From Candidatus Heimdallarchaeota archaeon (GTDB taxonomy: Archaea > Asgardarchaeota > Heimdallarchaeia > Heimdallarchaeales > Heimdallarchaeaceae), in NCBI GenBank assembly GCA_030668875.1, contig DAOVER010000004.1, forward strand, positions 15,626-79,625: DNA of 64,000 nt, read 5' to 3'. Under the pieces are notes generated by a model that was not told the DNA's origin, did no database searches, and worked only from the letters and a program-made list of their open reading frames with translations. The translations under genes and the position numbers were made by a program. Below, piece after piece: positions 543 through 61,613 of this stretch (position 1 is its first letter; every line of letters begins with the position of its first letter).

Positions 543-890
543 AATGAATCACTCGAGTGTGTATGAACAGATTACCTATTCGTTGTTTAACTCTCACTGA
601 AGTTTTTATAAATGTTGTCGCAATTTAGATGAATCAATACAACCATTAGAATAAATTTTGTAGAAGAATGAAAATAAATATCTTTAGACAATGCTATTTT
701 AAGTCTTGAGTCAATGAGACAGAAAAGTTCAATGTTTTTATTTAAACAAAAGATAATTTATTGCAAAAAAATTATTTTTTGATTCATCATCAAAAATGAG
801 CAGATTTTAACGAACTATCTGAAGTAGATTGCTAACAAAAAACATTTAAAGAAAGTAAGACTGAAAAGAACGAGCTAAAACATTACCAAA

Positions 891-965
891 GGGGTGGTGA
901 TCTAGCTCGGTTATGATATCTCCTTGACGTGGAGAAAGTCGGCGGTTCGAATCCGCCCCACCCCA
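891..965 (+). tRNA. tRNA-Val (anticodon GAC); genomically encoded CCA at 966-968
   Basis: Cloverleaf: acceptor GGGGTGG/CCACCCC; U8, A14, GG18-19; anticodon stem TCTCC/GGAGA with loop TTGACGT (U33, GAC); T-arm GGCGG-TTCGAAT-CCGCC; discriminator A, then CCA. Confidence 0.85.
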
Positions 966-1215
966 CCACCATTTCTATGTTTTTCTTTACTCAAATAATT
1001 CCTTTACACTAAGATATCTTTGTCCTGTATCAGCTAATGCCGTCACAATGACTTTGTTTATATTTTCTTTCCTTTTGGCTATTTATTCTACAGTTTTACA
1101 CGTTACGCCAGAAGATATTGATTTTGGCAAAACAGACCTCTTGATTTTATCTGCTAAATTTCAGCATACTAAAGGGTTTAATATTTGAGCATATTATAAA
1201 TGTAAACAAGTAATA

Positions 1216-1222
1216 GGTGAGG
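1216..1222 (+). promoter_or_regulatory. Shine-Dalgarno site (GGTGAGG) 3 nt upstream of the ATG at 1225
   Basis: Complementary to the archaeal/bacterial 16S rRNA 3' end; similar GGAGG/GGTGA motifs precede many starts in the window. Confidence 0.5.
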
Positions 1223-1224
1223 AA

Positions 1225-2178
1225 ATGGATTTCGTAAAGGAGGCTAAAAAAGCTGAAAAAAGGATTCGCAGCTATATTAGGAAAACTCCGTTAGAATATT
1301 CTCCGTTCTTAAGTAAAGAAGGCAAGAACAAAACCTACCTAAAGTTAGAAAATTTACAGCTCACTGGTTCATTTAAAATCCGTGGAGCTATAAATAAAAT
1401 ATTATCTCTCACGTTAGAAGATAGAGAAAAAGGGGTTATAACTTCGTCTTCTGGGAACCATGGTGCAGCTTTTGCTTATATTGCAGAAAAACTTGCTATT
1501 GATGGGACAATCTATCTACCTAAAAATGCTTCAAAAGCTAAAATTGCTTCACTTAAGAGCTATGGGGTCAATCTAGAATTTTATGGCTATGATTGTGTTC
1601 AAACTGAAACTCATGCGAGAAATCTCTCTCTAGAACAGGGAGTGGTTTTTGTTTCACCTTATAATGATTCTGAAATTATTGCTGGTCAAGCTACAATTGG
1701 AATAGAACTTCTTGAGCAATTGGCGGATACAGATGTTGTTCTTGTACCTGTTGGTGGAGGAGGTTTGATATCCGGAATTGCTGGTTATTTAAAATCCGTT
1801 AACAAGAATATTGAAGTGATTGGATGCCAACCCATTAATTCAGCTATTATGAATGAATCTATAAAACAAGGGAAAATTGTTACTATTGAATCATTAGACA
1901 CAATATCAGATGGAACAGCTGGAGGAATTGAAGAGAACTCCATCACATTTAATTTTTGTAAGAAGTATGTAGATGATTTCATCCTTGTTTCAGAATTAGA
2001 AATAAAAGAATCAATCAGGTTGGTGCTACAGCACCACCATATGTTAATAGAGGGAGCAGCCGCATTGACTGTTTCTTCCTACCTCAAAAACAAGAGTAAA
2101 TTTAAAGGAAAAAACGTGGTTTTAGTTATTAGTGGTGCGAAAATTAGCTTAGAGAAACTGAAGGAAATACTATGTTAA
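1225..2178 (+). CDS. PLP-dependent threonine/serine dehydratase (IlvA/TdcB family)
   Basis: SFKIRGA lysine motif; GNHG and glycine-rich GGGGL motifs of the fold-type II PLP enzyme family; 317 aa. Confidence 0.7.
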   Translation: MDFVKEAKKAEKRIRSYIRKTPLEYSPFLSKEGKNKTYLKLENLQLTGSFKIRGAINKILSLTLEDREKGVITSSSGNHGAAFAYIAEKLAIDGTIYLPKNASKAKIASLKSYGVNLEFYGYDCVQTETHARNLSLEQGVVFVSPYNDSEIIAGQATIGIELLEQLADTDVVLVPVGGGGLISGIAGYLKSVNKNIEVIGCQPINSAIMNESIKQGKIVTIESLDTISDGTAGGIEENSITFNFCKKYVDDFILVSELEIKESIRLVLQHHHMLIEGAAALTVSSYLKNKSKFKGKNVVLVISGAKISLEKLKEILC

Positions 2179-2187
2179 TCTAAAGTT

Positions 2188-2709
2188 TTAGTATTCATGG
2201 ATTTTAGTTAACTTTAGTTCTTCTTTATTCTGTACCATCTCTATCTCAATTACCTTAGTTTTCTTTTCCTTAAGTAAGAGTTCTGATATCATGTAATAGT
2301 CAGAAGGAACAATTTGATCTTTCATTGAGTTAATGTCCTTTAAAGTAAACCATTTCAACTCTCCTTCGTCTGTTGGAGATAACTTTCCTTCTTCTGTACT
2401 CACTTGACACACAATGATTATAAAATGCCGAACATTGCTTTCTTTGTCTACTTCTATCAATCTTTCATTTAATGTTCCTTTAATTCCTTCCCACTTAACT
2501 TCTAATCCTGTCTCTTCAAATATTTCTCGTAAGATGGCTTCTTTTAGTTCTTCATTCTTTTCTAATTTACCACCAACTAAAGCCCACTTCTTCTGATAGT
2601 CTCCTTTGCTGCGATTAATCAACAACCATTTTTCTCCCCATCTGATTCCTGCTACAACAATATTTAGGATATTGTTTTTCATCTTGATAAGGAGAGAAAA
2701 TAACATCAA
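2188..2709 (-). CDS. NUDIX hydrolase
   Basis: Nudix box GGKLEKNEELKEAILREIFEETGL (GX5EX7REUXEEXGU). The true start may be the internal Met (MKNNILNIV) at about 2682. Confidence 0.7.
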   Translation of the reverse strand: MMLFSLLIKMKNNILNIVVAGIRWGEKWLLINRSKGDYQKKWALVGGKLEKNEELKEAILREIFEETGLEVKWEGIKGTLNERLIEVDKESNVRHFIIIVCQVSTEEGKLSPTDEGELKWFTLKDINSMKDQIVPSDYYMISELLLKEKKTKVIEIEMVQNKEELKLTKIHEY

Positions 2710-2775
2710 AAACTTTTTCCTTCAGATTCATAAAACATTTAAAGATTCATATTCCAAATTCTTTAGCGAAGCCCA

Positions 2776-3369
2776 ATGACTAACTTCATCCAACGAACAT
2801 CTCAGACTATTCGCAGAAAGCTTGGCTATCCTGAAACATCGCTATTGGTTATGGGAAACAATCTTCCCGCGACACGTAACCGTGTTTTGCTTATGCGCTC
2901 TAATACTTCTTTAAATGAATTTATCATTGACAGCTGTTTGAATGAGCTTCCATATACTGAAAAACTAAAGTTCAAACCTAAACAATTTATCCCTTTCGAA
3001 GGTATTCTCTATCTTATAGATGCAACGAAAGAAGAAATGATTAAACATGAACGCAACTATTTCTGGGAAAAAATTATTTGGGATGAGGAAGTAGAAGATC
3101 TTCCTATAGCTGTCTGCGCTTACAACACTGATTTACAAGGAGCTTTGACTAGAGGAGAATTAATAGAAAACATGTCTCTCATACGCTTAACAGATCGTAT
3201 ATGGAACCTTTTTGAGGTTCCAGATGTGGATTCATTAATTGAATCTCTAAAATGGATGAAAAAGGTAATCCATATGGGTTACATAAAACCTTGGGTAGAA
3301 AAAGAAAAATTGTTAGAAAAAATACAACCTATTAAGGTTCAATTTCCTTCAGAAGAAGAAAATAATTAA
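2776..3369 (+). CDS. Ras-superfamily-like protein with degenerate G motifs (possible pseudo-GTPase); first gene of the cluster
   Basis: Layout resembles small GTPases: LLVMGNNLPATRN in the G1 position (no GKS/T), LYLIDATKEE in the G3 position (DTAGQE-like), VCAYNTDL in the G4 (NKxD) position. Lies 19 nt upstream of the next gene, which has its own SD. Confidence 0.35.
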   Translation: MTNFIQRTSQTIRRKLGYPETSLLVMGNNLPATRNRVLLMRSNTSLNEFIIDSCLNELPYTEKLKFKPKQFIPFEGILYLIDATKEEMIKHERNYFWEKIIWDEEVEDLPIAVCAYNTDLQGALTRGELIENMSLIRLTDRIWNLFEVPDVDSLIESLKWMKKVIHMGYIKPWVEKEKLLEKIQPIKVQFPSEEENN

Positions 3370-3388
3370 TAAATAAGAGGAATATACA

Positions 3389-4936
3389 ATGACAATTTCA
3401 ATTGAAAATATAATGAAGGATGGTTATTCTGGTTATTCCGTTCGTTCTATATTAATGAATCCAGAATTCCGTGATAGAGTTTCTAAAGACGTTACTGTTC
3501 GTGGTAATGAAGTTGGAAAAAAACTTGTTATGGATAAATTAGCTGTTGGTGGTAAAGTCCTAATTACAGGTCCAACAGGTGAAGCCAAAACTCTTTTTGC
3601 AAGAGTATTGCTTGACCACATTGTTAGAGAAATTAACAATTACAAATACCATATCGGCGGTTGTCCATTCTTAGAAGATGCCGGATACATTGTAGATATC
3701 ATCAATAACTTTCCATCAAATCCTTTTGCTGGAATTAGAGTTATGCAATCTCTATGTCCGTATTGTAGACAAAAAATCGAAGGTGTTTTATCTGATGGAA
3801 ACAGTTCTGTACAACTAGACAATACAAATAGCATACTTGAAATTTCTCCAAAAGAAGTAGTAAGTAGGTTAGGAAAACTCGATGCTACAAAAACACTAGT
3901 CAGAAGATCACAACTTGATCCAAGAAACGATCCTGAAAGTCTCTATATGCTACTTGCAGGTGTCGAAAACTTAGAAGAACTGTTTGGCAAAGAAACTCAA
4001 ACTACTTATGCCGCCACCTCACACAAGGTAGGTGTTCTTTCCCACGGTATATTAGTTGTGAATGAAATTCAGAGGCTCCCATTAACACTATTAGAATCAT
4101 TGATGGGTTTTCTTGAAGAACCAATGGGTATTAAATACAACATCCAAGGAGAACCAGTTTACATAGATGGTGCCGTAATCTTTACATCTAATGCACCACT
4201 GACAGTCTTTGGAGAAGAAAGTCAACCTATTATCAATCGTATTCCTGAAGTACTATGGCCCGCACGTTCTGTTGAAAGCAGAGAACAAATTATACGTGAT
4301 ATGTTTGAAGAACAGATTGTTCTATCACGAAAGAAAATCACAGCAAATCCTTCTATTATACAATTGCATGAATTGGAAAAAGGTTCTACAGATTTTGTTA
4401 GCAGACTTGCAGTAGATTTTCTTGCATATCTTGGAAATAATTCCTTACCTGCTAACCTAAAATCAAAGGGCATTCGTTCAGAAAGTCGTATGGCACGTAC
4501 CGATTTCTATTCTGGTCTTGATGAAATCCATGATCCACAAAGAAATCCTCACATAGATTTACGTACTATGAACAATATCATTGGTGAGACAGTGCTTTTA
4601 CAAGCTAGAGAAACAGCTACGGATGCCAATGTTATAACTCTGGAAAAGCTACGAAGTACAATGAATGCTTACGATATACCTGTTTCGATGCTCAATGATG
4701 CTCTTCAACAGATAAAGATTCTTTTGAGAACATCAATAAAAGAATCAGAAGTTTCTATAAGTGTTCAAGATATCTCTGAAGATATTTCAAAGATGAAAGC
4801 ACTAAGTGATAATGAACTAGCAGATCTGATTGTAAAGTTTGAAGGTTTAGATAAGTACAAAGACAAAATCCGAACAACAATAATTGAGAGTCTTAGACCA
4901 TCTTACGAGCAATTGTTAAGAGTAGATTACATCTAG
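3389..4936 (+). CDS. MoxR/ChlI-type AAA+ ATPase with a Cys-rich insertion and a C-terminal extension
   Basis: Walker A GPTGEAKT (MoxR-style GxPGxAKT); Walker B-like ILVVNEIQRL (Asn in place of Asp); sensor region VIFTSNAP; insertion HIGGCPF...CPYCRQ suggests a zinc-binding element. Confidence 0.6.
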   Translation: MTISIENIMKDGYSGYSVRSILMNPEFRDRVSKDVTVRGNEVGKKLVMDKLAVGGKVLITGPTGEAKTLFARVLLDHIVREINNYKYHIGGCPFLEDAGYIVDIINNFPSNPFAGIRVMQSLCPYCRQKIEGVLSDGNSSVQLDNTNSILEISPKEVVSRLGKLDATKTLVRRSQLDPRNDPESLYMLLAGVENLEELFGKETQTTYAATSHKVGVLSHGILVVNEIQRLPLTLLESLMGFLEEPMGIKYNIQGEPVYIDGAVIFTSNAPLTVFGEESQPIINRIPEVLWPARSVESREQIIRDMFEEQIVLSRKKITANPSIIQLHELEKGSTDFVSRLAVDFLAYLGNNSLPANLKSKGIRSESRMARTDFYSGLDEIHDPQRNPHIDLRTMNNIIGETVLLQARETATDANVITLEKLRSTMNAYDIPVSMLNDALQQIKILLRTSIKESEVSISVQDISEDISKMKALSDNELADLIVKFEGLDKYKDKIRTTIIESLRPSYEQLLRVDYI

Positions 4937-9257: not shown

Positions 9258-9430
9258 AGAATCCGATTCCGTTTTATGCTTCTTAAAAACAAGTATTACA
9301 AGAATGATACACTCTATCTTTTTTTAGCAATTTCCCATCCAGCAAAAACAAACGTATCTAGGTTTATTAAGTGAAAACTGTCTATCAGATAAGCATACTT
9401 TTTAACTTTAAGAAGATAGGAGAAATAACA

Positions 9431-11407
9431 ATGCCATTAGATATCGAGACACCTCTAAAACCAAGAGGAGACCAACCAAAAGCTATTCAAAAGCTAGTTG
9501 GAGGGATAAAGAAAGGCAATCGATATCAGACTCTTTTGGGGGTTACTGGTTCAGGCAAAACCTATACTATGGCAGCTGTAATTGATAAAATTAAGAAACC
9601 TACTTTGATTATTGGCCCTAACAAAACTCTAGTGGCTCAGCTTTTTGGTGAGTTTAAAACTCTCTTTCCTTCTGCAAGCGTCAATTATTATGTTTCCTTT
9701 TATGACTATTATCAACCTGAAGCATATCTTCCTTCAAAGGATATGTATATTAAGAAGGATGTAGATATAAATGAGGAAATTGAGCGTTTACGACATACTG
9801 CTTTAGAAGCTCTTGCAACTCGCGATGATGTTATCGTATGTGCATCTGTTTCATGTATCTATGGAACAGGCCCTCCTGAATTGTACCGTTCCAATCAGAT
9901 AAAATTGAATGTTGGTGATGCTTTTGATCGACAAAAATTAATGCTTGAACTTGTCAAGAATCAGTATCAACGAAACGATGTTGCACTCACTCGTAAATGT
10001 TTTAGAGTTCGTGGAGATTCTATTGACATCTTCCCATTATATGGTGATTATGTTTATCGCATCGAATTCTTTGGAGATGAAATTGAGCGTTTGACTGCCC
10101 GTCACCCGGTATCCGCAGAGAAGATGAAAGAATATGGGCATTTGTCAATCTTTCCTGGGACACAATACCTTGCCAATGACGCCTACTTTGAGAGAGCTCT
10201 GGAAGATATATCTGTAGAACTTGATATGCGATTAGCTGAATTGGAAAAAGAAAACAAAGTAATAGAAAGGCACCGACTGAAACAACGAGCACTTTATGAT
10301 TTAGAATTATTAAGAGAAACAGGATCCTGCCCAGGTATTGAAAATTACTCAAGACACTTTGATAGAAGGAAACCTGGAGAACAACCTTACACCCTTCTTG
10401 ATCACTTTCCAGAAGACTTCCTGTTAATCGTTGATGAATCACATTTAACGATACCACAAATACGAGGAATGTATGGTGGTGATCATTCTAGAAAGAAGAA
10501 TCTGATCGAATACGGTTTTAGACTTCCATCAGCACACGATAACAGACCTTTCAAATTTAATGAGTTCCGTAACTACATGAATACAGTCATCTTTGCTAGT
10601 GCTACTCCTGCTCCCTTTGAATTCCAAGTATCAAATCAGGTTATTGAACAAATTATACGTCCTACTGGTTTGGTTGATCCCAAAATAGATTTAAGATCAA
10701 CAAACGGACAAATTACCGATCTTCTAAGTGAGATTAATCAGAGAACGAGTAAGGGTGAAAGAGTTCTTGTAACAACTTTGACGAAAAAAAGCGCTGAAAT
10801 GCTTTCGGATTACCTTCTTGACATGAAAGTAAAATCTGTTTATCTTCATCATGAAGTGGTTACTTTAGAAAGGATTTCCATCCTCCGTGATTTAAGATTA
10901 GGTAAGTATGATGTTGTAGTTGGTATTAATCTTTTAAGAGAAGGTTTGGATTTACCTGAAGTTGCTCTTGTTGCTATTCTTGATGCAGATAAAGAAGGTT
11001 TTCTACGATCTAGGAGTTCATTAATACAACTAATGGGGCGTGCTAGTAGAAATGTACACGGTAGTGTTATTCTTTACGCAGATAATTTGACTAATTCAAT
11101 GAAAACAGCTATTGCAGAAAATAATCGTAGAAGAAGATTACAACAAGATTACAATAAACAACATGGTATTAAGCCAACAACAATCAGAAAAGAAGTTAAA
11201 TCCATTGTAGAACACCTTATGCAAATTACACCCAAAGAAGAGGAAAAAATTGAAGTACCCAAGGGTCTTACGAAGGAAGATCTTCTTTATGTTATTGAAG
11301 ATTTATCTAGCCAAATGGCTGAAGCAGCAGGAATATTAGATTTTGAAAAAGCTGCTCTTTATCGCGATAAAATTCAAGAACTTGAGAAAATGGTGGAAAG
11401 CAGATGA
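9431..11407 (+). CDS. uvrB: Excinuclease ABC subunit B (UvrB)
   Basis: GDQPKAI, the GVTGSGKT P-loop, helicase motifs and a C-terminal UvrB/UvrC interaction helix. Start placed at the Met with SD (MPLDIETPLKPRGDQP); the ORF track extends it to 9371. Confidence 0.9.
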   Translation: MPLDIETPLKPRGDQPKAIQKLVGGIKKGNRYQTLLGVTGSGKTYTMAAVIDKIKKPTLIIGPNKTLVAQLFGEFKTLFPSASVNYYVSFYDYYQPEAYLPSKDMYIKKDVDINEEIERLRHTALEALATRDDVIVCASVSCIYGTGPPELYRSNQIKLNVGDAFDRQKLMLELVKNQYQRNDVALTRKCFRVRGDSIDIFPLYGDYVYRIEFFGDEIERLTARHPVSAEKMKEYGHLSIFPGTQYLANDAYFERALEDISVELDMRLAELEKENKVIERHRLKQRALYDLELLRETGSCPGIENYSRHFDRRKPGEQPYTLLDHFPEDFLLIVDESHLTIPQIRGMYGGDHSRKKNLIEYGFRLPSAHDNRPFKFNEFRNYMNTVIFASATPAPFEFQVSNQVIEQIIRPTGLVDPKIDLRSTNGQITDLLSEINQRTSKGERVLVTTLTKKSAEMLSDYLLDMKVKSVYLHHEVVTLERISILRDLRLGKYDVVVGINLLREGLDLPEVALVAILDADKEGFLRSRSSLIQLMGRASRNVHGSVILYADNLTNSMKTAIAENNRRRRLQQDYNKQHGIKPTTIRKEVKSIVEHLMQITPKEEEKIEVPKGLTKEDLLYVIEDLSSQMAEAAGILDFEKAALYRDKIQELEKMVESR

Positions 11408-13221
11408 GCCTTTTATCAGATTTAGAATCTTTACCTTTAGAACCCGGAGTTTATCTAATTAAGGATAAAGATGAAAAAATTGTATATGTCGGTAAAGCTA
11501 AAAACATTCGAAACCGAGTAAAACAACATTTTCAAACTACTCATGACCCAAAAGAGGATAAACTACAGGAGTTAGCTAGTAGAGTAGATTGGGTGATTAC
11601 AAGAAATGAATCAGAGGCTCTAATTTTAGAAAAGAAATTAGTGAAACAGCTTTCACCTAGATTAAACAGCCAACTGAAAGATGACAAATCACATCTTCTA
11701 ATTCGTATATCGATGGAAGATGAATACCCTCAGTTTTATATTGCTAGAGAAACTGATTCTAGAATTCCTAAAAGTGTATACTTTGGTCCCTTTACCAATG
11801 ATACGATGCTTAGACAAACAGCAAAACTTGTTCTGAAACTATTTCCAATATGTGATTGTGGGAAGTGTAAAGAACAAACTAGAAAAAGTAAAGCTCCTCT
11901 ACGTTGCATGAGAGAACGATTGGGCAGGTGCTTAGCTCCATGTTTAAATGACGTTTCTCCTGAAGAATATGGAAAAACAGTCAAAAACGTTATCGCTTTT
12001 CTAAAGGGCGACGTTGCTGATTTACTTGATAATCTTGGAAGGGAAATGTGGACAGCTTCTGAAGGATCAAATTTCGAAAAAGCTGCAAACCTGCGTGACC
12101 TTATTCAAGCTGTTTATACAATTTTGAACATACAAAAAGATCTACACTCAAAGAAAAGGAATGTTGACTTATTGGCTTATAGAGAAGAGGATAGTATCCT
12201 TTCTTTATGTAAGATAGAAATTCGAGAATACAGAATTCACAACATTAAAGCTTTCATTTATGACGAGAAAGAAGAGATGTTAAATCTGGGTGAAGTGTTA
12301 ACCTACATCTATGGTTTAGAGAAACCGAGATATAAGATTCAAGCTAGTAATGACTTCATTTCTAGGTTCAAGAATAATATTGGTTTCCAAATTTTAAGTA
12401 TTAGAGGAGATACAGCTAAACAACTAAACGATGTTACAGAGAAGAATGCATCTAAAGAATTACAAAAGTATATGCGAGAATTAAAACACCATGAGGACGC
12501 GGAAACCGTTCTAGAGGAAGTGAAAACCATTCTTTGTTTAGATAAAATGCCGGAGATAATACATGGTTTTGATATATCGACATTGAAAGGGCAACATTCA
12601 GTAGGTTCTTGTGTAGTTTTTGCTAATGGGAAACCAAGGAAAGACCTATACAGACGTTTTCGTATTAGAAAAGAATATTCAGATCCCAATGATTATGAAA
12701 TGATGAAGGAAGTAATTTCCCGTAGATACAAATCCGACACTCTCAAAAAGGATCCTTTACCGAATCTGCTGATAATTGATGGTGGGAAGGGACAACTGAA
12801 TATTGCTGTAAAAGTTTTAAAGACCTTGCAATTGAACGTTCCAGCAATAAGCATCGCTAAGAAAAACGAGGAAATATTTGTAGAAAATCAAAGCGAACCA
12901 ATCAAACTTGAACAAAAGTCAGCTGTTCTAAGGTTAATTCAATATGTCAGAGATGAGTCTCACAGGTTTGCAATAAATTACCACAAGAAGCTAAGAGAAA
13001 AGTCTGTAAAGCGGACAATATTCGATGATATCAAGGGAATCGGTAAGAGTAAAGTCCAGGCTCTATTCCACGAATACAAAAACATACAAGAAATTGCTAA
13101 TTCTGATATATCTGAAATGAAAAAAGTTTTAGCTGTTAATGAAAAAATAGCTACGCAAGTTATAGATTTAGCTAAAAAAAATTTGAATAAGAACTACATT
13201 CGAGAAAATTCGAATAAATAA
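11404..13221 (+). CDS. uvrC: Excinuclease ABC subunit C (UvrC)
   Basis: N-terminal GIY-YIG (GVYLIKDKDEKIVYVGKAKNIRNRV), UvrBC-binding region, C-terminal RNase H-like/HhH region; 4-nt overlap with uvrB. Confidence 0.9.
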   Translation: MSLLSDLESLPLEPGVYLIKDKDEKIVYVGKAKNIRNRVKQHFQTTHDPKEDKLQELASRVDWVITRNESEALILEKKLVKQLSPRLNSQLKDDKSHLLIRISMEDEYPQFYIARETDSRIPKSVYFGPFTNDTMLRQTAKLVLKLFPICDCGKCKEQTRKSKAPLRCMRERLGRCLAPCLNDVSPEEYGKTVKNVIAFLKGDVADLLDNLGREMWTASEGSNFEKAANLRDLIQAVYTILNIQKDLHSKKRNVDLLAYREEDSILSLCKIEIREYRIHNIKAFIYDEKEEMLNLGEVLTYIYGLEKPRYKIQASNDFISRFKNNIGFQILSIRGDTAKQLNDVTEKNASKELQKYMRELKHHEDAETVLEEVKTILCLDKMPEIIHGFDISTLKGQHSVGSCVVFANGKPRKDLYRRFRIRKEYSDPNDYEMMKEVISRRYKSDTLKKDPLPNLLIIDGGKGQLNIAVKVLKTLQLNVPAISIAKKNEEIFVENQSEPIKLEQKSAVLRLIQYVRDESHRFAINYHKKLREKSVKRTIFDDIKGIGKSKVQALFHEYKNIQEIANSDISEMKKVLAVNEKIATQVIDLAKKNLNKNYIRENSNK

Positions 13222-31415: not shown

Positions 31416-31511
31416 GGGCCAGTAGTCTAGTCCGGATAAGGCACCAGCCTTCGGAAGAAATATTCTGAAGACAGCTGGGGGTCGCAGGTTCAAGTCCTGC
31501 CTGGTCCGCCA
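31416..31511 (+). tRNA. tRNA-Arg (anticodon TCG) with an ~18-nt intron at the canonical 37/38 position; encoded CCA
   Basis: Acceptor GGGCCAG/CTGGTCC, D-stem GTCT/AGGC with A14 and GG18-19, anticodon stem CCAGC/GCTGG, loop CTTCGG^intron^A, T-arm GCAGG-TTCAAGT-CCTGC. Intron AAGAAATATTCTGAAGAC pairs with the exon loop (CTTCGG/CTGAAG). Confidence 0.7.
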
Positions 31512-48353: not shown

Positions 48354-50870
48354 CTATTTTAGCTCATCCACTTTAGCCCTTAATTTCTCAACAAGATCAG
48401 TCTTTTCCCAAGTGAAATCGGGCAATTCTCTTCCAAAATGTCCATAGCAAGATGTTTTTTGATAAATTGGTCTCTTTAATTTAAGGTATTCAATAATATT
48501 TCCTGGTCTGAAGTCGAATACACAAAGAATAGCTTCCTTTAGAATTTCTATTGAAACTTTTTCAGTACCAAAACATTCAATATTAACTGCTAAGGGCTTG
48601 GGTTCACCAATTGCATAAGAAACTTGAACTTCACACTTATCAGCTAATTCTGCAGCAACAACATTCTTTGCGACATATCTTGCTGCATAAGAAGCTGATC
48701 GATCTACTTTTGAAGGATCTTTACCAGAATTATGACATATGAACCCGTTTGCCGTGAAAGAGTGCACGCCTGGTACTTCAAAATCATAAACATGATTTTC
48801 ATTTTCGGTTATAGACTTTAGTTCTGAATAGTAATGATTCAGAATATAGTATGATTTTAGATACTCAAAATCTGGATCGTCATCAAATCGATTTTTATAA
48901 CAATCTAAGAATTCTACTAATTTTGTATATGTTAATTCCTTAGTCCCTTTATAACTTTGACTTCGAAGTAAACGACCTATTTTTGCTTTATCCTCTTGAT
49001 GTTCTTTTGGTGATAGCTTATCCCATAATCGTTTCAACCTACTTTTTTGATTGGGAATCCTCCAAAGGTTTCTCTTATTAGAAAAATCAACTGAATTCAA
49101 GACTCTAGATTTTCTTGTTAATCCAAAATTGATTTCTTTTTTAAAGGCTGTTATGCTATTTGTACCTTTAATTCGAAGATGATAGCGAATTCTCTTAGAT
49201 TCCACTATTCTACCATCTATTTCTGATTTAAGTCCTCGCGCACCAACTTCTTGTATAGAACTAATAATTCCAAAATTTAGCAGTAATTGTTGTGTTTCCT
49301 CGATTAACTGCTTTGATGTTGAAGTAAGAGTTATTTCAATTGAATTTAGGTTTCTTCCAGTTTTTCTTATGGTTCCATCGGTGTCAAATAAACCTCTAAT
49401 AAATGAAGCAATTACAGATTTTTGTGCTTTAAAAATACTGTTTGGAACACTTTTTTCCCAAGACCTTGAATAATCTAATCCAAGTGTGTAAAGAAACTCC
49501 CTAAGTTCTACCCCACAATAATGTGCCCAATGACCGAATATTTTCCCTTTATCGCCAAATAGCTGTTCATAGAGATTCTGAACAGAATTTTTCATCTCAT
49601 CTTCCCATACACATATCTGTATACCATTTCTAGATGTACACAAACCATCACCAATAAGCAATCCTAAGAGATATCCATATTCTTCTGTAAGTGTATTGGG
49701 AAATTTAAATTCATTAAATCGTCGAGTTCCTTCTTTATGCTGAAATTCAAAGTTAATTGTAGAATTCTTACCAAATAATCGATTTTTCCTTTGAATAGCA
49801 ATCCAATCATCAGTTTGTAAAGTGTCTAATCTCCTCCAAACATAATTGCCGTTTTTATCAATTATTCTTATATTTTGATTAAAAGAACCTTCCAGCTTGT
49901 AACCTTCTTTTGTTTCTACAATTAATGTTTTCATTTTTCCATTGTCTATCCATCTCTTAATGGGTGACGGTGATATGTCTGTTTTGATTAAGGTTCCTTC
50001 TTCAATACCATCTAGTTCAGATATGGTTGCTATTCCATTTTCATAATTAATCAAGCTGCTACCTGCAACGCAGAATGCTCCTCCACCGTGAGAATCTACT
50101 CCTCCGTAAGTGTCAACGATTATTTTTCTTCCTGTTAATCCTGAATCGCCATGTGGTCCCCCTGTAACAAATCTCCCTGTTCGATTGATGAAGATTTTAG
50201 TTTTTTCATCTACTAAGTAAGTTGGGATAACTGCTTCAATAACTTCTTTTTTCAATCCAGATTCAATTTCTTCATTTGTTGCTTCTTCTGCATGTTGGGC
50301 AGCAATAACAATAGCTTCTATTCGAATTGGCTTATCATTCTCATATTCAACTGCCACTAGTGATTTGCCATCTGGGCGTAGAAAGGGCAAAGTACCATTT
50401 TTTCGAACTTCAGTGAGTTTCATTGTTATTTTATGGGCTAGTACTATAGGTAATGGCATAAATTCTGGAGTTTCTTTTGTTGCATATCCATACATAATAC
50501 CTTGATCTCCTGCCCCTTGTTCCTCAACCATGTCTTTTTTTACACCTTGAGCTATGTCTTCTGATTGAGAGTGCACTGTGTTTATTATAGCACATCCTCT
50601 ATAATCAAAACCAATACTTGAATCATTATACCCGATTTCTTTAATAATATCACGAATGATTTTTTCATATTCAACAGTACACACTTTTGATGTGGTAATT
50701 TCACCACCTACTAAAACAAGACCTGTTGTAACAAAACATTCACATGCTACATGTGCATCAGGATCATCTTTTAAAATAGCATCGAGGATCGCATCAGAAA
50801 TTTGATCACAAATTTTGTCAGGATGCCCCTCTGTTACAGATTCTGAAGAAATAATTTTACGTAATACCAT
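48354..50870 (-). CDS. metK: Bacterial-type S-adenosylmethionine synthetase (MetK) interrupted by a 448-aa intein
   Basis: N-extein ends ...HGGGAF, C-extein starts [18 protein letters not shown]. The extein sum is 390 aa with the MetK motifs [12 protein letters not shown] and [13 protein letters not shown]. Confidence 0.9.
48729..50072 (-). mobile_element. Intein with a LAGLIDADG homing endonuclease, inserted in the MetK GGGAF|SGKDP motif
   Basis: Starts with Cys (CVAGSS), ends with HN and is followed by a +1 Ser; two LAGLIDADG motifs ([22 protein letters not shown]). Boundaries come from residue counting (intein residues 267-714). Confidence 0.85.
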
Positions 50871-51625: not shown

Positions 51626-51773
51626 GATTAATTATCTGTTCTTCATGTTAATAAGAATTTCTTAAAAGGAATAAATGAAAATACAAGTTCAACTTTGTAT
51701 ATATACTATCTTGTAAGAAAGAAACTAAAATAGGGTTAAACCTATTAATTAGGTTGAATTCTGAATATATCAT

Positions 51774-53913: not shown

Positions 53914-56022
53914 CTATTCTAGCAATAATCTAAGAGTTACGAGTTGACCATTAATTTCATTCTTAAGTTTTTCAATGGTCTGTTGTCTTTCACGGAATAG
54001 TTTAACATAAGATTCTTTGGTCATGCTTTTCTTAGTTCTATATTCTTGTTGAAGCGCTCTTAGATTTCTTCTTTCTTCGTAGAGTTTTCTTTCAGCAATC
54101 TCGATTTTCTGAACAGATTCTTTGTATCTTCCACCAAGAGCTGATAAACTTATCTTTGTTGTCTTCAAGGACTCTTCTTCGGCTCTTAGGCGTTTTTCTA
54201 GCTTAGCACGTAATTCTTTACCTTCTTTTGCTTTCATTTTCTTACTTGCTATTTTCGCCTTTACCTGTCTGAGACGTTCTCTAATAGATAAAACTTCTTC
54301 ATATTGTTTTACAAATTCTTCAATCTCATCAACAGGAATGAATTCTTCTTCTATCTCGGCTTCAGAAAGTCCTTTTATTCGTTTTGCTGACCAACGAAGT
54401 CCAAGGTATATAGCAAAGATAAGACCCACTGCCATAAATTGCCAGAAGAATGTGATAAACATGTTAAAACCAGTGTAACTATATTCTATAATTAACGATG
54501 AGTTATCGCTTCCCGAAAAATTTGTGAACTGTAATCCTACCACTCTCTTTGTTCCTAGTGCAGTAAAATCGAATAATCTCCCATAATCAATTATCATGTC
54601 CTGATAAGGATCTGTATTCCAATAATCAAGTTCCTTATATACTGCTCCCTTAGGAAGAATTATTTCAAGATTTAGATTATCTATGGACCAATTAACAATT
54701 GAACTTGGAGAAAGTGTGAGTTTGTAGTTTGAACTTCCTTGTTCTTTCTCTAGAACACTCTCCATTGGAACAGTGTATACAATTGTAAATTTCATTTCTT
54801 CTCCATGGAATAGAGGTTCTCTTGGAAAGATAAGCAAAGCTTGATGTCCTTCAAATGTACTATCCCTTAGGTTGTAAGCACCTCTTTCAAAATATCCCTC
54901 TTCATTTATCTGATACTCTTGATTTAAGGATCCAGTGTCATCATACAAATCAATAACAGTAACGTTTTTTGGAAACACTATCGGAAATGAGTTTAGAGCA
55001 TACAGTTTTGGAGAGAGATGATCATAATCTTCAGGTCTTTCACTACCTAAGAAAACGATATTCTGTGTTTCAGTTATTTGTACTAGTCCATAAGGATCAA
55101 TTTCTACAACTCTATGAACTTCTGTTGCTTTAAACAGCAATGTGCTTGACTGTTGTTCTGCATCAGCAGTGCTTACTGAAGATATATGTACATTAAGGAG
55201 AAGATCGTCAGAATATGATTGACTATAATTAAAGGGCAATCTTGTGATGTTTGACCATTTAAGAGTACCACTTACTGCATCATTGATAACAGTTATCCCT
55301 TCAGTATCATTTCCAGGAGATATTCGGAATTCTGCTACATCTAAAAATAGGTCACCACCTTGTTTTTCAACTTTGACTGACCCATTAACAATTGGTATGT
55401 TGTTAATAAGAGGATACAACAATTCTTCATAATGAGTAATCTGTTCTCCTACATAAAGCTCAAATGTATAAGGCATAGAAAATTCAATGTACGAATTGAT
55501 GAAATAAACGTCATTTTGGTGAATTTCTGTTTTATTCACGTTGAAGGGAATGACGAAAGTTGTATAGTTCAATAATTTGTTAAATGTATATATCCGAGTA
55601 GCATTACCTTCTATTAGTGACTTATAAGTGGCATTAGCTACACGAAAACTGGCGTAAGTTATTTTATCAGCATGAATATTAGGCAATGTATAATTAAAAT
55701 ATGTTAAATTTAGATTACCAATCACTTTTAATTCAATACTATCCGAGATTGAAAGTACACCAAAATTCTCTATGTTAATTGATCTATTTACTATAGATGT
55801 TACATTTAATCCATAGTCGATGACACCGATATCATTGTATCCTTCATCACTGTACACCATGCCACTTGGGGTAAGGAGGGGTGTACTATTCACAATATTC
55901 GATAGATCTGTTTGAGGGTTCATTTCTGCGGAACCCTGTGTTGAATTCAGCATAGCTGAAAATGATATGCTAACGATGACAAGTAATGTAAAAGTTAACA
56001 TTATACCTTTGTTTTTGTGCAT
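53914..56022 (-). CDS. Type I membrane glycoprotein with a long cytoplasmic coiled-coil tail
   Basis: Signal peptide; sequon-rich ~520-aa ectodomain; a single TM (FWQFMAVGLIFAIYLGL); ~160-aa K/R/E-rich heptad tail. Confidence 0.5.
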   Translation of the reverse strand: MHKNKGIMLTFTLLVIVSISFSAMLNSTQGSAEMNPQTDLSNIVNSTPLLTPSGMVYSDEGYNDIGVIDYGLNVTSIVNRSINIENFGVLSISDSIELKVIGNLNLTYFNYTLPNIHADKITYASFRVANATYKSLIEGNATRIYTFNKLLNYTTFVIPFNVNKTEIHQNDVYFINSYIEFSMPYTFELYVGEQITHYEELLYPLINNIPIVNGSVKVEKQGGDLFLDVAEFRISPGNDTEGITVINDAVSGTLKWSNITRLPFNYSQSYSDDLLLNVHISSVSTADAEQQSSTLLFKATEVHRVVEIDPYGLVQITETQNIVFLGSERPEDYDHLSPKLYALNSFPIVFPKNVTVIDLYDDTGSLNQEYQINEEGYFERGAYNLRDSTFEGHQALLIFPREPLFHGEEMKFTIVYTVPMESVLEKEQGSSNYKLTLSPSSIVNWSIDNLNLEIILPKGAVYKELDYWNTDPYQDMIIDYGRLFDFTALGTKRVVGLQFTNFSGSDNSSLIIEYSYTGFNMFITFFWQFMAVGLIFAIYLGLRWSAKRIKGLSEAEIEEEFIPVDEIEEFVKQYEEVLSIRERLRQVKAKIASKKMKAKEGKELRAKLEKRLRAEEESLKTTKISLSALGGRYKESVQKIEIAERKLYEERRNLRALQQEYRTKKSMTKESYVKLFRERQQTIEKLKNEINGQLVTLRLLLE

Positions 56023-57039: not shown

Positions 57040-59724
57040 TTGACAAAGATTAGGAGTAAATCTAAAATGAAGCGGTTTGATGATAGAAAACTGAAACCAA
57101 AACTTACACCGATGATGCAGCAATGGCAACAGATAAAGAATCAATACCCAGATTATTTGTTATTCTTTAGAGCTGGTGACTTCTACGAATGTTTCAATGA
57201 AGATGCAAAAGTCGCTTCTGAGATTTTGAATATCACTCTAACTGCTCGTAATATTGGAGAAAAGAAATTTCCTCTTGCTGGAGTGCCTTATCATGCAGTT
57301 GATGCATATATAGCTAAAATGGTTCAATCAGGTAATAAAGTAGCTATTGTTGAGCAGCTAGAAGATCCTAAACTTGCTAAAAAAATAGTCAAGAGAGGAG
57401 TAGTGCAGCTCGTAACTAGAGGCACAATCACTTTACCCGAATCTCTTGGGAAAAGTAGAAACAATTATCTCGTCTCAATTAAAAAAGAACAAGGAATTTA
57501 TGGATTAGCTGCACTTGATTTATCTACTGGTGAATTTTTAGTTACTGATTTCGATGAAGAGAATGCTCTTAATTTACTAGAAGTTGAGCTAACAAGATTG
57601 AAACCTTCTGAAATCATTATTGAAAGTGAATTGTGGAAATCTCTTAATATTTACTCGGACGCACAACTATGTACAATTACTTACAGAGATGATTTCTTCT
57701 TTGATACTGAGCAAGGAAAAGAAAACCTTTGTCAACATTTCAATGTATTAAGCTTGGAAGGTTTCGGAATTGGAGATTATAATCCTTCTACTGGTTCAGC
57801 TGGAGCCATCTTGAGTTATATAAAGGAAACACAGATGAGAGAAAATTTCCTTAACATCACTAAAATCAGTCCCATTTTGAGTCATGACTACATGGTCTTG
57901 GATTCAAGTACTATTAGAAATCTTGAACTTATTGAAAACTTACGTGACAGGACCGAGTATGGAACTCTTAGGCAAGTATTAGATAATACGAGAACCTTTG
58001 CTGGTTCTCGATTATTAACTTCTTGGATTCTTCGACCTAGTCTAAACCATTCTACCATTCAAACACGAATCGATTCTACTGAAGAGCTGTTAAATGATAA
58101 TATTTTGCGTGATGAAATTCGAGATGTTTTGGGTAGAATGAATGATCTTGAAAGACTTATCAGCCGTGTATGCTTGGGCAGAAGCAAACCTCGTGATTTA
58201 TTGGCACTTAGACATTCCTTGGAATTAATACCCTCACTAAAAGACCTCCTCTCAAAAACTAAAACCTCTTTACTTCAAGAAATCAGAGAAAACCTTGATC
58301 CCGTTCAAAAGGCAGTTGATACAATTACTAAAGGAATTGAAGATGAGGTTCCCGCAAGTATCAAAGATGGAAATGTGGTAAGAGAAGGATATAATGATGA
58401 GTTAGATGAATTAAGGAAGATACAAAAAAGTGGGAAATCTTTTCTAGCTTCATTAGAAGCTAGAGAGAAAGTTCAAACTGGTATAAAGACCCTCAAAGTA
58501 AGATTTAACAAAGTTTTTGGTTATTATATTGAGATACCAAAATCCGTTTCAGAAAACGTTCCTCCAGAATACGAACGGAAACAAACATTGGTTAATGCTG
58601 AAAGGTTCATAACTCCAGAATTAAAGGAGTATGAGGAAAAAATACTGAATGCAGAAGAAAAGATACTAGTATTAGAAGAACGACTATTTAACGAAATACT
58701 TGAAGAAATCAGTAAACATGCAACAGAAATTCAATTAGACGCATATAATTGTGCAATATTAGATGTGATAACTACCTTTGCACAAAATGCTGTTTACTAT
58801 AATTACATCAAACCAGAAATAATTGATAAGGATATATTGAAAATCAAAGGAGGACGTCATCCAGTAGTTGAGCAATTGCTTGAACGAACAACATTTATCC
58901 CAAACGATACTGTTCTCAAGAAAGATTCCGAGAGAATATTGATAATTACGGGGCCCAACATGGGCGGAAAAAGCACTTTATTAAGACAAGTGGCTTTAAT
59001 TGTCTTAATGGCTCAAATTGGAAGTTTTGTTCCTGCTACTTCTGCAAAAATTGGACTAACTGACAGAATATTTACAAGAATTGGTGCCCATGATATTATT
59101 GTTGAAAATAGATCTACTTTCATGGTGGAAATGTATGAATGTGCAAACATTCTAAATAATGCTACAGAAAGAAGCATAGTTATCCTAGACGAGGTTGGTA
59201 GAGGAACTTCTACATATGATGGTGTAGCCATTGCTTGGTCAATAACCGAATATCTTCACAATAATATTGGTGAAGTTGGACCAAGAACAATGTTTGCAAC
59301 ACATTATCATGAACTCATAGAATTGGAAGAATTGTGGCCCAGAGTAAAAAATTATCATGCTTCAGTTAAGAACGTTAATGGTGAAATTCATTTCTTGTAT
59401 AAAGTTAAAGAGGGTGGTATAAGTGAAAGTTTCGGGATTCATGTTGCTTCTTTAGCTGGATTACCACAGAAAGTTATAAAAGATGCAGATGCGATGCTTT
59501 CGATTTTGCACAGACAAGAGAAAAAAGAAAATGAAAAACTTGGTCACAAAAAAACTGTAAAAAGAAAAACCAAAGAAGAAGATCAAACACTAATTGAAGA
59601 GGGCACACAACTGTTAGACGAAATCTCAGGTATCAATACTGACAGAATCACTCCAATAGAAGCTTTTAATTTATTGAACCAACTAGTAGAGAAAAGTAAG
59701 AAATATCTTGAAAAAGATAAGTAA
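57040..59724 (+). CDS. mutS: DNA mismatch repair protein MutS (bacterial MutS1 type)
   Basis: N-terminal mismatch-binding motif (GDFYECF), Walker A GPNMGGKST, full domain architecture; 894 aa. Confidence 0.9.
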   Translation: MTKIRSKSKMKRFDDRKLKPKLTPMMQQWQQIKNQYPDYLLFFRAGDFYECFNEDAKVASEILNITLTARNIGEKKFPLAGVPYHAVDAYIAKMVQSGNKVAIVEQLEDPKLAKKIVKRGVVQLVTRGTITLPESLGKSRNNYLVSIKKEQGIYGLAALDLSTGEFLVTDFDEENALNLLEVELTRLKPSEIIIESELWKSLNIYSDAQLCTITYRDDFFFDTEQGKENLCQHFNVLSLEGFGIGDYNPSTGSAGAILSYIKETQMRENFLNITKISPILSHDYMVLDSSTIRNLELIENLRDRTEYGTLRQVLDNTRTFAGSRLLTSWILRPSLNHSTIQTRIDSTEELLNDNILRDEIRDVLGRMNDLERLISRVCLGRSKPRDLLALRHSLELIPSLKDLLSKTKTSLLQEIRENLDPVQKAVDTITKGIEDEVPASIKDGNVVREGYNDELDELRKIQKSGKSFLASLEAREKVQTGIKTLKVRFNKVFGYYIEIPKSVSENVPPEYERKQTLVNAERFITPELKEYEEKILNAEEKILVLEERLFNEILEEISKHATEIQLDAYNCAILDVITTFAQNAVYYNYIKPEIIDKDILKIKGGRHPVVEQLLERTTFIPNDTVLKKDSERILIITGPNMGGKSTLLRQVALIVLMAQIGSFVPATSAKIGLTDRIFTRIGAHDIIVENRSTFMVEMYECANILNNATERSIVILDEVGRGTSTYDGVAIAWSITEYLHNNIGEVGPRTMFATHYHELIELEELWPRVKNYHASVKNVNGEIHFLYKVKEGGISESFGIHVASLAGLPQKVIKDADAMLSILHRQEKKENEKLGHKKTVKRKTKEEDQTLIEEGTQLLDEISGINTDRITPIEAFNLLNQLVEKSKKYLEKDK

Positions 59725-59780
59725 TAACACGGACAGAAGTAGTTTTCTTACTAAGAAAAAAGGAATAGAATTTTGGTTGT

Positions 59781-61613
59781 TTGAAGAAAATGATTATTGA
59801 ACTTGATACTCTCACTATAAATAAAATTGCCGCTGGAGAGGTTATAGAGCGACCTGCCTCTGTTGTTAAAGAACTTGTAGAAAATTCCATTGATGCTGGA
59901 AGTACTCAAATTAAAGTTGTCCTTCAGGAAGGGGGGAAGAAACTCATTGAAGTTACAGATAATGGTTCAGGAATGAATCATGATGACGCTTTGTTATCAA
60001 TCAAAAGTCATACAACAAGTAAAATTGCTACAGCTGAAGATTTGTTTTCAATTGCAAGTTTAGGCTTTAGAGGTGAAGCTTTAGCTAGTGTAGTAAGTGT
60101 TGCCCAAGTTGAAATTTTTACCAAAAGGGAAACTGACGAACTAGGAACACATATTCAAGTTGAAGGAGGTAAAATCCTTCTTGATAAAAATATCTCCGTA
60201 GCAAGTGGGACTAAAATTACCGTAAGGAATTTATTTTATAATGTGCCTGTAAGAAGAAGGTTTCTAAAGTCTGAAACAACTGAAATGAATCATATTACAG
60301 AATACCTCACAAAGCTAGCTTTGGCATTCCCAGAAATATCCTTTTCCCTAGATCATAACAATCGTAGTGTGATAACTGCTCCTAAAGGAGACCTTATCTC
60401 TCAAATAAATTCCATATTTGGAAAAAACATTGCAAAAGCATGTATTCCGGTTTCTAAGACAGAAGATGAATACACAGTTACCGGTTTTATAACCAAACCA
60501 GAATTTTCTAGAAAATCTAGGGACTATCTTTATATCTTCGTTTTAAACCGACCTATCGTAAATAAAGTAATCACCGATGCGATTCTTCGTGGATATAGTA
60601 CAGCACTGCCACATAATAGAACCCCCATAGTTTTTCTAAATATCACAGTTCCAAAGAATGAAGTTGATGTTAATGTTCATCCCACGAAAAAAGAAGTTCG
60701 TTTTAGTAAAGAAGCTAAATTGTTTAGCCTAGTTGAACTTGCAGTAAAAGAATCTCTAGAAAAAAGCGGATTAGAGATATTTGAAAGGGTATCAGAACCA
60801 AAACACAAGCCCACAATGCTAGATCAACATTCAGCGCCAAAGGTAGTTTCTAAGACACAACCCACCCAAATACGATCATCACCTTCTCCTCCTTTAGTTC
60901 AAGATAAAGTGGGGTATAAGGTAGTGAAAACAAGAGATAAATCAATTGATCATTTCTTACCTTCTACTCACAGAGGAACTTCATATCAAAAACAAGAGCA
61001 TTCGCCAAAACCACTGATTAAAATCCTTGGAATAATCAAGGATACTTACATTATAGCTGAAACGAATGAAGGTCTTCTATTATGTGATCAACATGCTGCT
61101 CATGAGAAAATTAATTATTCTAAATATGTTGATCAAATTGAAAGAAAAAAAATTAGTGTTCAAAGTTTACTCGCACCAGTTTCAGTTAGTATAAAACCTT
61201 CAGAGTTAGAAGTTATTAATGATCTTAAAACTAAATTGAAAGAATATGGTTTTGAATTAGAAATTTTCGGTAAAAATGAGATTCTAATACGTTCAATTCC
61301 TTCGATAATGGGCGTTGCTATTTCATATGACTTAGCAAAAGATTTGATTGACATATTTAAAGAAAATATAGACCAGATTAACAAACAAACAACGCTTGAA
61401 GATTTAGGTTTTATAAAAGACATAGTTTCTATCTTTGCATGTCGAAGATCCATTAAAGCCGGTGACAAAATCTCAGTTAGTGAAGCTGAATCATTGATTG
61501 AAAATCTCTTAAAATTAGAAGAACCTTATACGTGTCCTCATGGGCGTCCAACAATGGTTATCTTGAATCAGAAGTATATCGAAGAAATATTCCAAAGAGA
61601 TTACAAATCATAA
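59781..61613 (+). CDS. mutL: DNA mismatch repair protein MutL
   Basis: GHKL ATPase N-terminus (IAAGEVIERPASVVKELVENSIDAG, DNGSGM, GFRGEAL); C-terminal dimerization domain. Confidence 0.9.
   Translation: MKKMIIELDTLTINKIAAGEVIERPASVVKELVENSIDAGSTQIKVVLQEGGKKLIEVTDNGSGMNHDDALLSIKSHTTSKIATAEDLFSIASLGFRGEALASVVSVAQVEIFTKRETDELGTHIQVEGGKILLDKNISVASGTKITVRNLFYNVPVRRRFLKSETTEMNHITEYLTKLALAFPEISFSLDHNNRSVITAPKGDLISQINSIFGKNIAKACIPVSKTEDEYTVTGFITKPEFSRKSRDYLYIFVLNRPIVNKVITDAILRGYSTALPHNRTPIVFLNITVPKNEVDVNVHPTKKEVRFSKEAKLFSLVELAVKESLEKSGLEIFERVSEPKHKPTMLDQHSAPKVVSKTQPTQIRSSPSPPLVQDKVGYKVVKTRDKSIDHFLPSTHRGTSYQKQEHSPKPLIKILGIIKDTYIIAETNEGLLLCDQHAAHEKINYSKYVDQIERKKISVQSLLAPVSVSIKPSELEVINDLKTKLKEYGFELEIFGKNEILIRSIPSIMGVAISYDLAKDLIDIFKENIDQINKQTTLEDLGFIKDIVSIFACRRSIKAGDKISVSEAESLIENLLKLEEPYTCPHGRPTMVILNQKYIEEIFQRDYKS

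Follow-up and report, generated by a model that had tools for sequence, protein, structure and literature searches.

A predicted class-1 intein with a LAGLIDADG endonuclease in the MetK of a Heimdallarchaeaceae archaeon, and its mobility

In a 64,000-nucleotide (nt) stretch of contig DAOVER010000004.1 from a Candidatus Heimdallarchaeota archaeon (assembly GCA_030668875.1; the window hereafter), the metK gene for methionine adenosyltransferase (MAT) is listed as one open reading frame (ORF) of 838 amino acids (aa) without interruption, and 448 of these aa stand in the middle of a conserved motif of the enzyme. What is this insertion, could a normal enzyme still be made from the gene, and does the insertion move among genomes? 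We suggest that it is very probably a true class-1 intein, with a LAGLIDADG homing endonuclease nested inside, and that it lies in frame at HGGGAF/SGKDP of a Heimdallarchaeaceae MetK (here and below, the slash marks the insertion point), with splicing and cleavage as predicted activities. The intein is mobile in this population, or was so until very recently: the site is empty in near-identical relatives, and the window shares a low-divergence tract with a second intein-bearing genome, L090.

Architecture, class and predicted fold of the intein

We set the boundaries by locating GGGAF/C and HN/SGKD in the translation. Removal of the 448-aa intein leaves a 266 + 124 = 390-aa MetK (coordinates in Table 1). 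A preliminary description of this DNA had proposed the same 266/448/124 split and the same mature length, and the boundaries recomputed here are exactly those. The residues that it listed as canonical (Cys1, the C-terminal His-Asn and the +1 Ser) are all present, and both LAGLIDADG motifs were found, each with its acidic residue. However, it missed that the block-B His of inteins is a Gln in this one. As it had also claimed, the insertion lies inside the conserved HGGGAF/SGKDP, whose halves rejoin exactly as in intein-free MetK; alignment to E. coli MetK and to the empty alleles of related genomes confirmed the boundaries.

The 390-aa spliced product aligned end to end with E. coli MetK (7r2w; 481 bits), gap-free over the junction, and scored 445 bits against human MAT2A. 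Its residues F266 and S267 correspond to the neighbouring residues 263 and 264 of the 7r2w chain. The insertion point is two residues ahead of the Lys of the GKD motif, which we take to be in contact with the phosphates. The host is a MetK-type methionine adenosyltransferase, with all three S-AdoMet_synt domains (N, M and C; PF00438, PF02772 and PF02773; E 1e-40 to 1e-58, the C domain in two pieces) and a full-length match above the curated cutoff (NCBIfam TIGR01034 metK, 555 bits vs. 309.4). The precursor also matched LAGLIDADG_3 (1.9e-19) and Intein_splicing in Pfam, and TIGR01443, the intein C-terminal region, in NCBIfam.

Regarding sequence integrity, a locus from the Logan assembly SRR26080962 (L081) is 100% identical to the window over 4316 nt, the entire gene included. 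Since this assembly is independent, a frameshift or an assembly artefact in metK can be dismissed, and the intein region holds neither a frameshift nor a stop. A profile search of the six-frame translation of the window retrieved the MetK intein and no other.

The class-1 features found were the N-terminal Cys nucleophile, the C-terminal His-Asn followed by Ser at +1, and a host protein restored on removal of the insertion. Block B departs from this class, with S-F-N-Q instead of T-x-x-H; the latter is highly conserved in inteins but not strictly defining, and natural exceptions are known. Inteins of classes 2 and 3 lack Cys, Ser or Thr at position 1, and class 3 has in addition a Trp(B)-Cys(F:4)-Thr(G:5) set. 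Both classes were considered and ruled out by Cys1, by Asp430 at F:4 and by Cys446 at G:5.

At the structural level, we modelled the intein with AlphaFold2 on the basis of 14 aligned sequences; the model reached a predicted local distance difference test score (pLDDT) of 92.4 and a predicted template-modelling score of 0.92. The HINT fold and the LAGLIDADG core fold are both recovered in this predicted model. With the whole intein as query, Foldseek against the PDB placed the TliVMA intein at the top (E 2.5e-22, template-modelling (TM) score 0.67-0.69), followed by PI-PfuI, PI-PkoII and PI-SceI. Further matches were to I-DmoI, I-Tsp061I and the endonuclease domain of PI-PfuI over the endonuclease core, and to NpuDnaB, Ssp DnaB, Mxe GyrA, Mtu RecA and the Hedgehog HINT domain over the HINT core, the latter with root-mean-square deviations of 1.5-4 Å over ~105 columns. 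The LAGLIDADG core fold runs alpha-beta-beta-alpha-beta-beta-alpha, and the order of secondary structures in the model is consistent with it.

We suggest the following course of events for such an architecture. The 838-aa precursor would be translated in a form that is presumably inactive, because the conserved MetK motif is split. Cys1 would carry out an N-S acyl shift, Ser+1 would attack the resulting thioester, and cyclisation of Asn448 would release the intein. The products would be a normal 390-aa MetK and a free 448-aa endonuclease. The endonuclease could then cut intein-free metK at the reconstituted site, and repair templated by the intein-bearing allele would copy the intein together with flanking DNA, that is, homing.

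Empty sites, the tract shared with L090 and selection

The spliced extein is closest to 390-aa MetKs of Ca. Heimdallarchaeaceae, which have 93-97% aa identity to it and no intein. In loci L082 to L086, the genes follow the order of the window (MutL, MutS, DeoC, Ribophorin I, ..., a 216-aa ORF, MetK, DUF1616, ..., FttA). Once spliced, the window gene has 1173 nt and is colinear with five empty alleles (93.7% and 90.2% nt identity), and blastn over ~21 kb of syntenic DNA is broken only at window positions 50077 and 48729, which are the ends of the intein. Thus, the insertion is precise and scar-less. Apart from the intein, no large difference separates the window from the empty loci over these ~21 kb. 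The empty metK site of L082 reads ...CATGGTGGTGGAGCTTTT/TCAGGTAAAGATCCATCA....

A local surplus of synonymous differences close to the junction was also considered. We counted 7 differences in 60 nt vs. 6.3% overall against L082, and again 7 in 60 vs. 9.8% against L084. This signal against the empty alleles is too weak alone and was superseded by the comparison with L090.

L090 is the closest intein-bearing genome and presents the same synteny. A two-breakpoint likelihood scan delimited a low-divergence segment of 3119 nt (Table 1), with 3.98% divergence vs. 11.9% outside (likelihood-ratio test statistic 180.6, Fisher p 6e-41). The segment covers the intein and ~1 kb of flank per side, and its divergence is about a third of that in the background. 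Within it, synonymous divergence (dS) between the window and L090 was 0.12 for the N-extein, 0.14 for the intein and 0.11 for the downstream DUF1616 gene; 12 of the 14 neighbouring genes tested gave 0.3-0.5, and DeoC gave 0.23. Site patterns inside the tract group the window with L090 (27:7:8), and those outside resolve no grouping (74:74:95). At junction-side positions, the two intein-bearing alleles have the synonymous variants CAC..GCA../TCT..CCT..AAA in common, whereas all five empty alleles read CAT..GCT../TCA..CCA..AAG. This is the pattern that would be expected of homing with co-conversion of the flanks, and we consider the segment a candidate co-conversion or recombination tract.

The ratio of nonsynonymous to synonymous divergence (dN/dS) between the window and L090 was 0.109 for the intein and 0.105 for its endonuclease region, next to 0.21 for the N-extein and 0.013 for the C-extein. 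In the Heimdall clade of MetK, the intein is present in 4 of ~59 clusters, at three separate positions of the tree, and the window is nested among empty alleles. Identities to other carriers were 73% (intein) and 75% (extein) for P0063, and 69% and 84%, respectively, for P0002; intein and extein are thus incongruent, the former being nearer to P0063 and the latter to P0002. Across the whole family, intein and extein identities were weakly correlated (Spearman coefficient 0.27), and some pairs had 60% identity in the extein and 89% in the intein.

Several points weigh against homing as the source of these patterns. The tract could stem from ordinary homologous recombination instead of endonuclease-driven homing. 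It is also uneven, with a dS of 0.26 in the C-extein vs. 0.12-0.14 in the N-extein and intein. In the comparison with the empty alleles, too, the metK exteins show somewhat lower divergence than the background (7.7% vs. 13.3%), so part of the dip in divergence reflects constraint on metK. Moreover, the trees are neighbour-joining trees built from biased samples.

The intein family, block B and alternative explanations

A full-length search retrieved at least 120 protein clusters with an intein at the same MetK site (site-b). We defined a family set of 121 sequences, made up of 120 cluster representatives (90% level) and one cluster member, P0121. All of them present an intein of 447-459 aa at the identical site, GGG(A/C/S)(F/Y)/C...HN/SGKD, with invariant Cys1, Arg69, Asp142, Asp430, Asn442-Gly443, His447, Asn448 and Ser+1. 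The family is tight and set apart from other inteins in a library clustered at 50% identity: full-length matches at the MetK position included P0063 (771 bits) and P0080 (479 bits), and the best match outside this position reached 280 bits; one divergent match at the MetK position, P0244, scored 249 bits.

In the scan of GTDB species genomes, the intein was found at 42 loci with 46-67% identity, and most of these belong to DPANN archaea (Micr-, Nano-, Pace-, Woese-, Aenigmat- and Iainarchaeota, and Diapherotrites). It was also found at 49-51% identity on two contigs of Patescibacteria/Parcubacteria metagenome-assembled genomes. The neighbours are the epsilon and beta subunits of an F-type ATP synthase on one (L014), and SecD and a sigma-70 region-4 protein on the other (L015). 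Both are genuinely bacterial at the contig level, and because these neighbour genes are bacterial, the intein lineage spans archaea and bacteria of the candidate phyla radiation (CPR).

Six relatives (P0003, P0004, P0010, P0024, P0058 and P0059) have a second, unrelated MetK intein of ~405 aa at another site (site-a, GAGDQG/S(M/V)FGY), and a 1308-aa ORF of L014 (positions 805-4728) is also a two-intein MetK. The site-a intein resembles the site-b intein in its host protein and in being a Cys1...HN/S LAGLIDADG intein, but differs in site and length, has 29% identity to it, keeps a canonical block B (TPDH) and is missing from the window.

Public annotation names intein-bearing MetKs plainly as methionine adenosyltransferase. 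One of them, P0054, is mislabelled 'Vitamin B12-dependent ribonucleoside-diphosphate reductase', an artefact caused by the intein. P0063 (582 aa, 'MAT domain-containing protein', L089:5100-7749) was considered as a split or truncated MetK and rejected; its N-extein is intact and in frame upstream, which makes the short protein a gene-calling artefact. Annotation pipelines have no model for an intein-containing MetK, and the precursors end up named plainly, truncated, or mislabelled as ribonucleotide reductase.

A virus was also considered as the vector. When 2.9 M IMG/VR contigs were searched with the intein profile, no match exceeded ~38% identity over its best segment (most were at 23-32%), and thus there was no evidence for viral carriage. 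At 23-38% identity, vs. at least 46% for the MetK-site inteins, these matches are other inteins.

The block-B His is normally the most conserved catalytic residue of inteins and activates the N-terminal junction. In pairwise and profile alignments, Gln66 of the window intein aligns with this His of NpuDnaB (tgnH), Mxe GyrA (TGTANH) and the VMA inteins (VTPIH), and residues 61-70 of the model, which form block B, have a pLDDT of ~97. Gln is found in 99 of the 121 family members and His in the other 22, and the intein tree implies at least two changes between these states. All 121 have Phe or Tyr at extein position -1, which belongs to the MetK motif. The only inteins that reviews name as devoid of the block-B His are the Tko CDC21-1 group, in which a Lys compensates, and a degraded DnaB intein. 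In an engineered intein, Ssp DnaB M86, bulky -1 residues including Phe rescue the H73A mutant by straining the scissile bond, and the authors of that study speculated that such -1 contexts were where natural inteins without this His originated (Friedel et al. 2018, PMC6333167).

By analogy, the invariant bulky Phe(-1), possibly together with hydrogen bonding by the Gln, may supply the strain on the scissile bond here. We propose only tentatively, as a possibility short of an even chance, that site-b MetK inteins are a large natural family that dispenses with the block-B His and partly delegates the first splicing step to the extein. If true, the family would do in nature what the Phe(-1)/H73A rescue does by engineering, and this would help explain an intein lineage that is locked to one site while crossing Asgard archaea, DPANN archaea and CPR bacteria. 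Two points speak against it: many characterised inteins no longer splice once the block-B His is lost, with activity of the Gln form inferred from its conservation, and the role given to Phe(-1) is borrowed from an engineered mini-intein. The strongest co-variation with block B is at intein residue 428 (block F, within 48750-48794), Thr in 22/22 His-type and Val in 94/99 Gln-type inteins. We claim no function for it, as it is confounded with phylogeny (~2 state changes).

The same Gln invites the explanation that the insertion is unable to splice, with metK dead or dying and S-adenosylmethionine (SAM) supplied by another enzyme, for instance an archaeal-type MAT encoded elsewhere. Mutating the block-B His does kill splicing in many inteins, and our view of this genome was that of the window. 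We nevertheless find this explanation very improbable. The ORF is intact in two independent assemblies, and the dN/dS values of the exteins (0.21 and 0.013 for the N- and C-extein) indicate strong purifying selection. Gln is the majority state across many phyla (99 of 121 clusters), with the other catalytic residues invariant. No archaeal MAT was found among the window ORFs of at least 370 aa, and in sister genomes the intein-free orthologue at the same locus is apparently the sole MetK in the 20 kb seen. Being metagenome-derived, the sequence could also be an assembly chimera or a mis-called in-frame insertion, but this is effectively refuted by the 100% identity over 4.3 kb in the independent Logan assembly, by a 96%-identical copy with the same synteny in a JGI contig, and by more than 120 relatives with the same architecture.

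As for mobility, the intein might splice but no longer home, with the endonuclease kept for structure or another role and the tract left by ordinary recombination among Heimdallarchaeaceae. The tract ends are indeed asymmetric (the left one at the metK start, the right one inside the DUF1616 gene), the 74:74:95 site patterns outside it are those of a generally recombining population, and cleavage by the intein is a prediction. Even so, we see the loss of homing as unlikely: the endonuclease region evolves at a dN/dS of 0.105 with its catalytic Asp kept family-wide, empty and occupied sites coexist among alleles of 93-97% aa identity, the trees of intein and extein disagree both within phyla and between them, in a family of both archaea and CPR bacteria, and the tract is centred on the intein. 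A conditional switch, in which splicing and SAM synthesis respond to redox or another signal, for example through Cys1, Cys446 or, in relatives, Cys(-2), could exist alongside mobility. Disulfide-trap conditional splicing is documented for other archaeal inteins, and 103 of the 121 relatives have Cys at block G:5 (residue 446) and 41 at extein position -2 (GGGCF/C). A switch is, however, distinctly improbable to us: the window has Ala at -2, and most close relatives do without the intein, so it has no essential regulatory role in this clade. The reading that we prefer is that of a mechanistically standard class-1 intein with a LAGLIDADG endonuclease, a fairly ordinary mobile intein.

In the GGGCF/C relatives, the Cys at -2 sits two residues ahead of the catalytic Cys1, and an effect of disulfide redox state on splicing is conceivable there.

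Origin of metK, genomic setting and comparison with known inteins

The preliminary description had read the bacterial-type metK as a sign of horizontal acquisition. As a recent event, this did not hold: synteny is conserved in several Heimdallarchaeaceae genomes, the G+C content of metK is host-like (0.35-0.36 vs. 0.34 for the window), and a rough neighbour-joining tree puts into a single clade the MetK-type enzymes of Heimdall, Loki, Hod, Thor and Hermod archaea. An ancient inter-domain transfer may nonetheless have occurred. The archaeal-type MAT (PF01941) had no match in any of the 17 ORFs of at least 370 aa in the 64-kb window, metK included.

The window itself is archaeal and of Asgard type, with FttA/aCPSF1 carrying a KH_TffA domain, a Ribophorin I homologue and DUF1616 proteins. 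The Ribophorin I homologue is a 702-aa protein (53914-56022, minus strand; Pfam 9e-15), which corresponds to a eukaryote-type oligosaccharyltransferase subunit and is kept in all syntenic loci, L082-L090. The window also contains the bacterial-type gene pairs MutS-MutL (57040-61613, plus strand) and UvrB-UvrC (9371-13221, plus strand). A tRNA at 31416-31508 (plus strand; Rfam 50.8 bits), missed by ARAGORN, is probably an intron-containing archaeal tRNA, as its length of 93 nt suggests. A 65-nt intergenic stretch (51682-51746) is missing from the otherwise 100%-identical L081, either as an insertion or deletion or as an assembly difference.

Table 1. Coordinates of the metK precursor gene, its intein and the associated tract in the window
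Feature	Position	Strand	Remarks
metK precursor gene	48354..50870	-	838 aa + stop; MetK with one in-frame intein
N-extein, aa 1-266, ends ...DSHGGGAF (Phe = -1)	50073..50870	-	colinear with E. coli MetK and empty alleles
Intein, aa 267-714, 448 aa, CVAGSS...FICHN	48729..50072	-	HINT splicing domain with nested LAGLIDADG homing endonuclease (predicted)
C-extein, aa 715-838, 124 aa, begins SGKDPSKV (+1 nucleophile Ser)	48357..48728	-	
metK stop codon	48354-48356	-	
Block A with nucleophile Cys1	50034..50072	-	Cys1 in 121/121 relatives
Block B core S-F-N-Q (canonical T-x-x-H, His to Gln; intein residue 66)	49875..49886	-	
LAGLIDADG motif 1, YLLGLLIGD142G, acidic Asp142	49644..49673	-	Asp in 121/121; Pfam LAGLIDADG_3
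LAGLIDADG motif 2, FIRGLFDTD232G, acidic Asp232	49374..49403	-	Asp in 117/121
Blocks F and G: F:4 Asp430, F-block His, penultimate His447, terminal Asn448	48729..48794	-	TIGR01443
Vacant second intein site GAGDQG/IMYGY	50484..50516	-	~405-aa intein here in six relatives
Low-divergence tract common to window and L090	47754..50872	.	metK + intein + most of downstream DUF1616 gene

To our knowledge, InBase lists no MetK intein. Full-text searches of 7.7 M PMC papers and of bioRxiv found no paper describing one, and none is mentioned in the main text of either Novikova et al. 2016 or a 2020 review. As far as established, what is new is MetK as a host and the insertion site, the second site in relatives, the spread over Asgard archaea, DPANN archaea and CPR bacteria, and the predominance of Gln at block B. 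SAM synthetase, a central metabolic enzyme, thus joins the intein hosts, with two distinct insertion sites, and one intein lineage is common to the three groups. The Heimdallarchaeaceae loci offer a clean sequence-level case of a selfish element moving in a natural population, in which alleles with and without the intein are seen and a co-conversion-like tract has been mapped. The natural His/Gln polymorphism beside an invariant bulky -1 residue is a ready test of extein-assisted activation of the N-terminal junction. The current understanding of intein function is unchanged by the MetK intein.

Among inteins of known structure, the TliVMA, PhoVMA (7qss, 7qst), PI-PfuI (1dq3), PI-PkoII (2cw7) and yeast PI-SceI inteins present the same HINT domain with a nested two-motif LAGLIDADG endonuclease and extra DNA-binding elements. 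They share the class-1 chemistry of Cys1, His-Asn and a +1 nucleophile, with Foldseek E-values from 2.5e-22 to 1e-12 and TM scores up to 0.69. However, identity to the MetK intein is 11-18%, and their hosts are V-ATPase, ribonucleotide reductase and DNA polymerase. The VMA inteins aligned here also keep the block-B His, where the MetK intein has Gln. The nearest relatives outside MetK are the PhoH intein of Blastocatellia (L043:2548-4740) and the intein of a terminase-like protein of Paenibacillus (L048:2677-5769), with the same domain layout and 29% full-length identity. Both are inserted after Gly-Lys, the former following VAGTGK/C in a glycine-rich stretch and the latter GFGK/C, and both differ from the MetK intein in keeping the block-B His (TPEH and TLNH).

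Finally, two systems resemble the MetK intein in lacking the block-B His. Ssp DnaB M86 G(-1)F/H73A (6fre; Friedel et al. 2018) likewise has Phe at -1, but it is an engineered bacterial mini-intein without endonuclease, relevant here by analogy. The Tko CDC21-1 intein and its orthologues are, like the MetK intein, natural and apparently functional, with a bulky -1 residue (Leu) (PMC6333167, PMC7765530). They differ in their MCM host and in their site, and their compensation is credited to a Lys that stabilises the tetrahedral intermediate. In the MetK intein the replacement is a Gln, and its family keeps both the His and the Gln forms (22 and 99 of 121).

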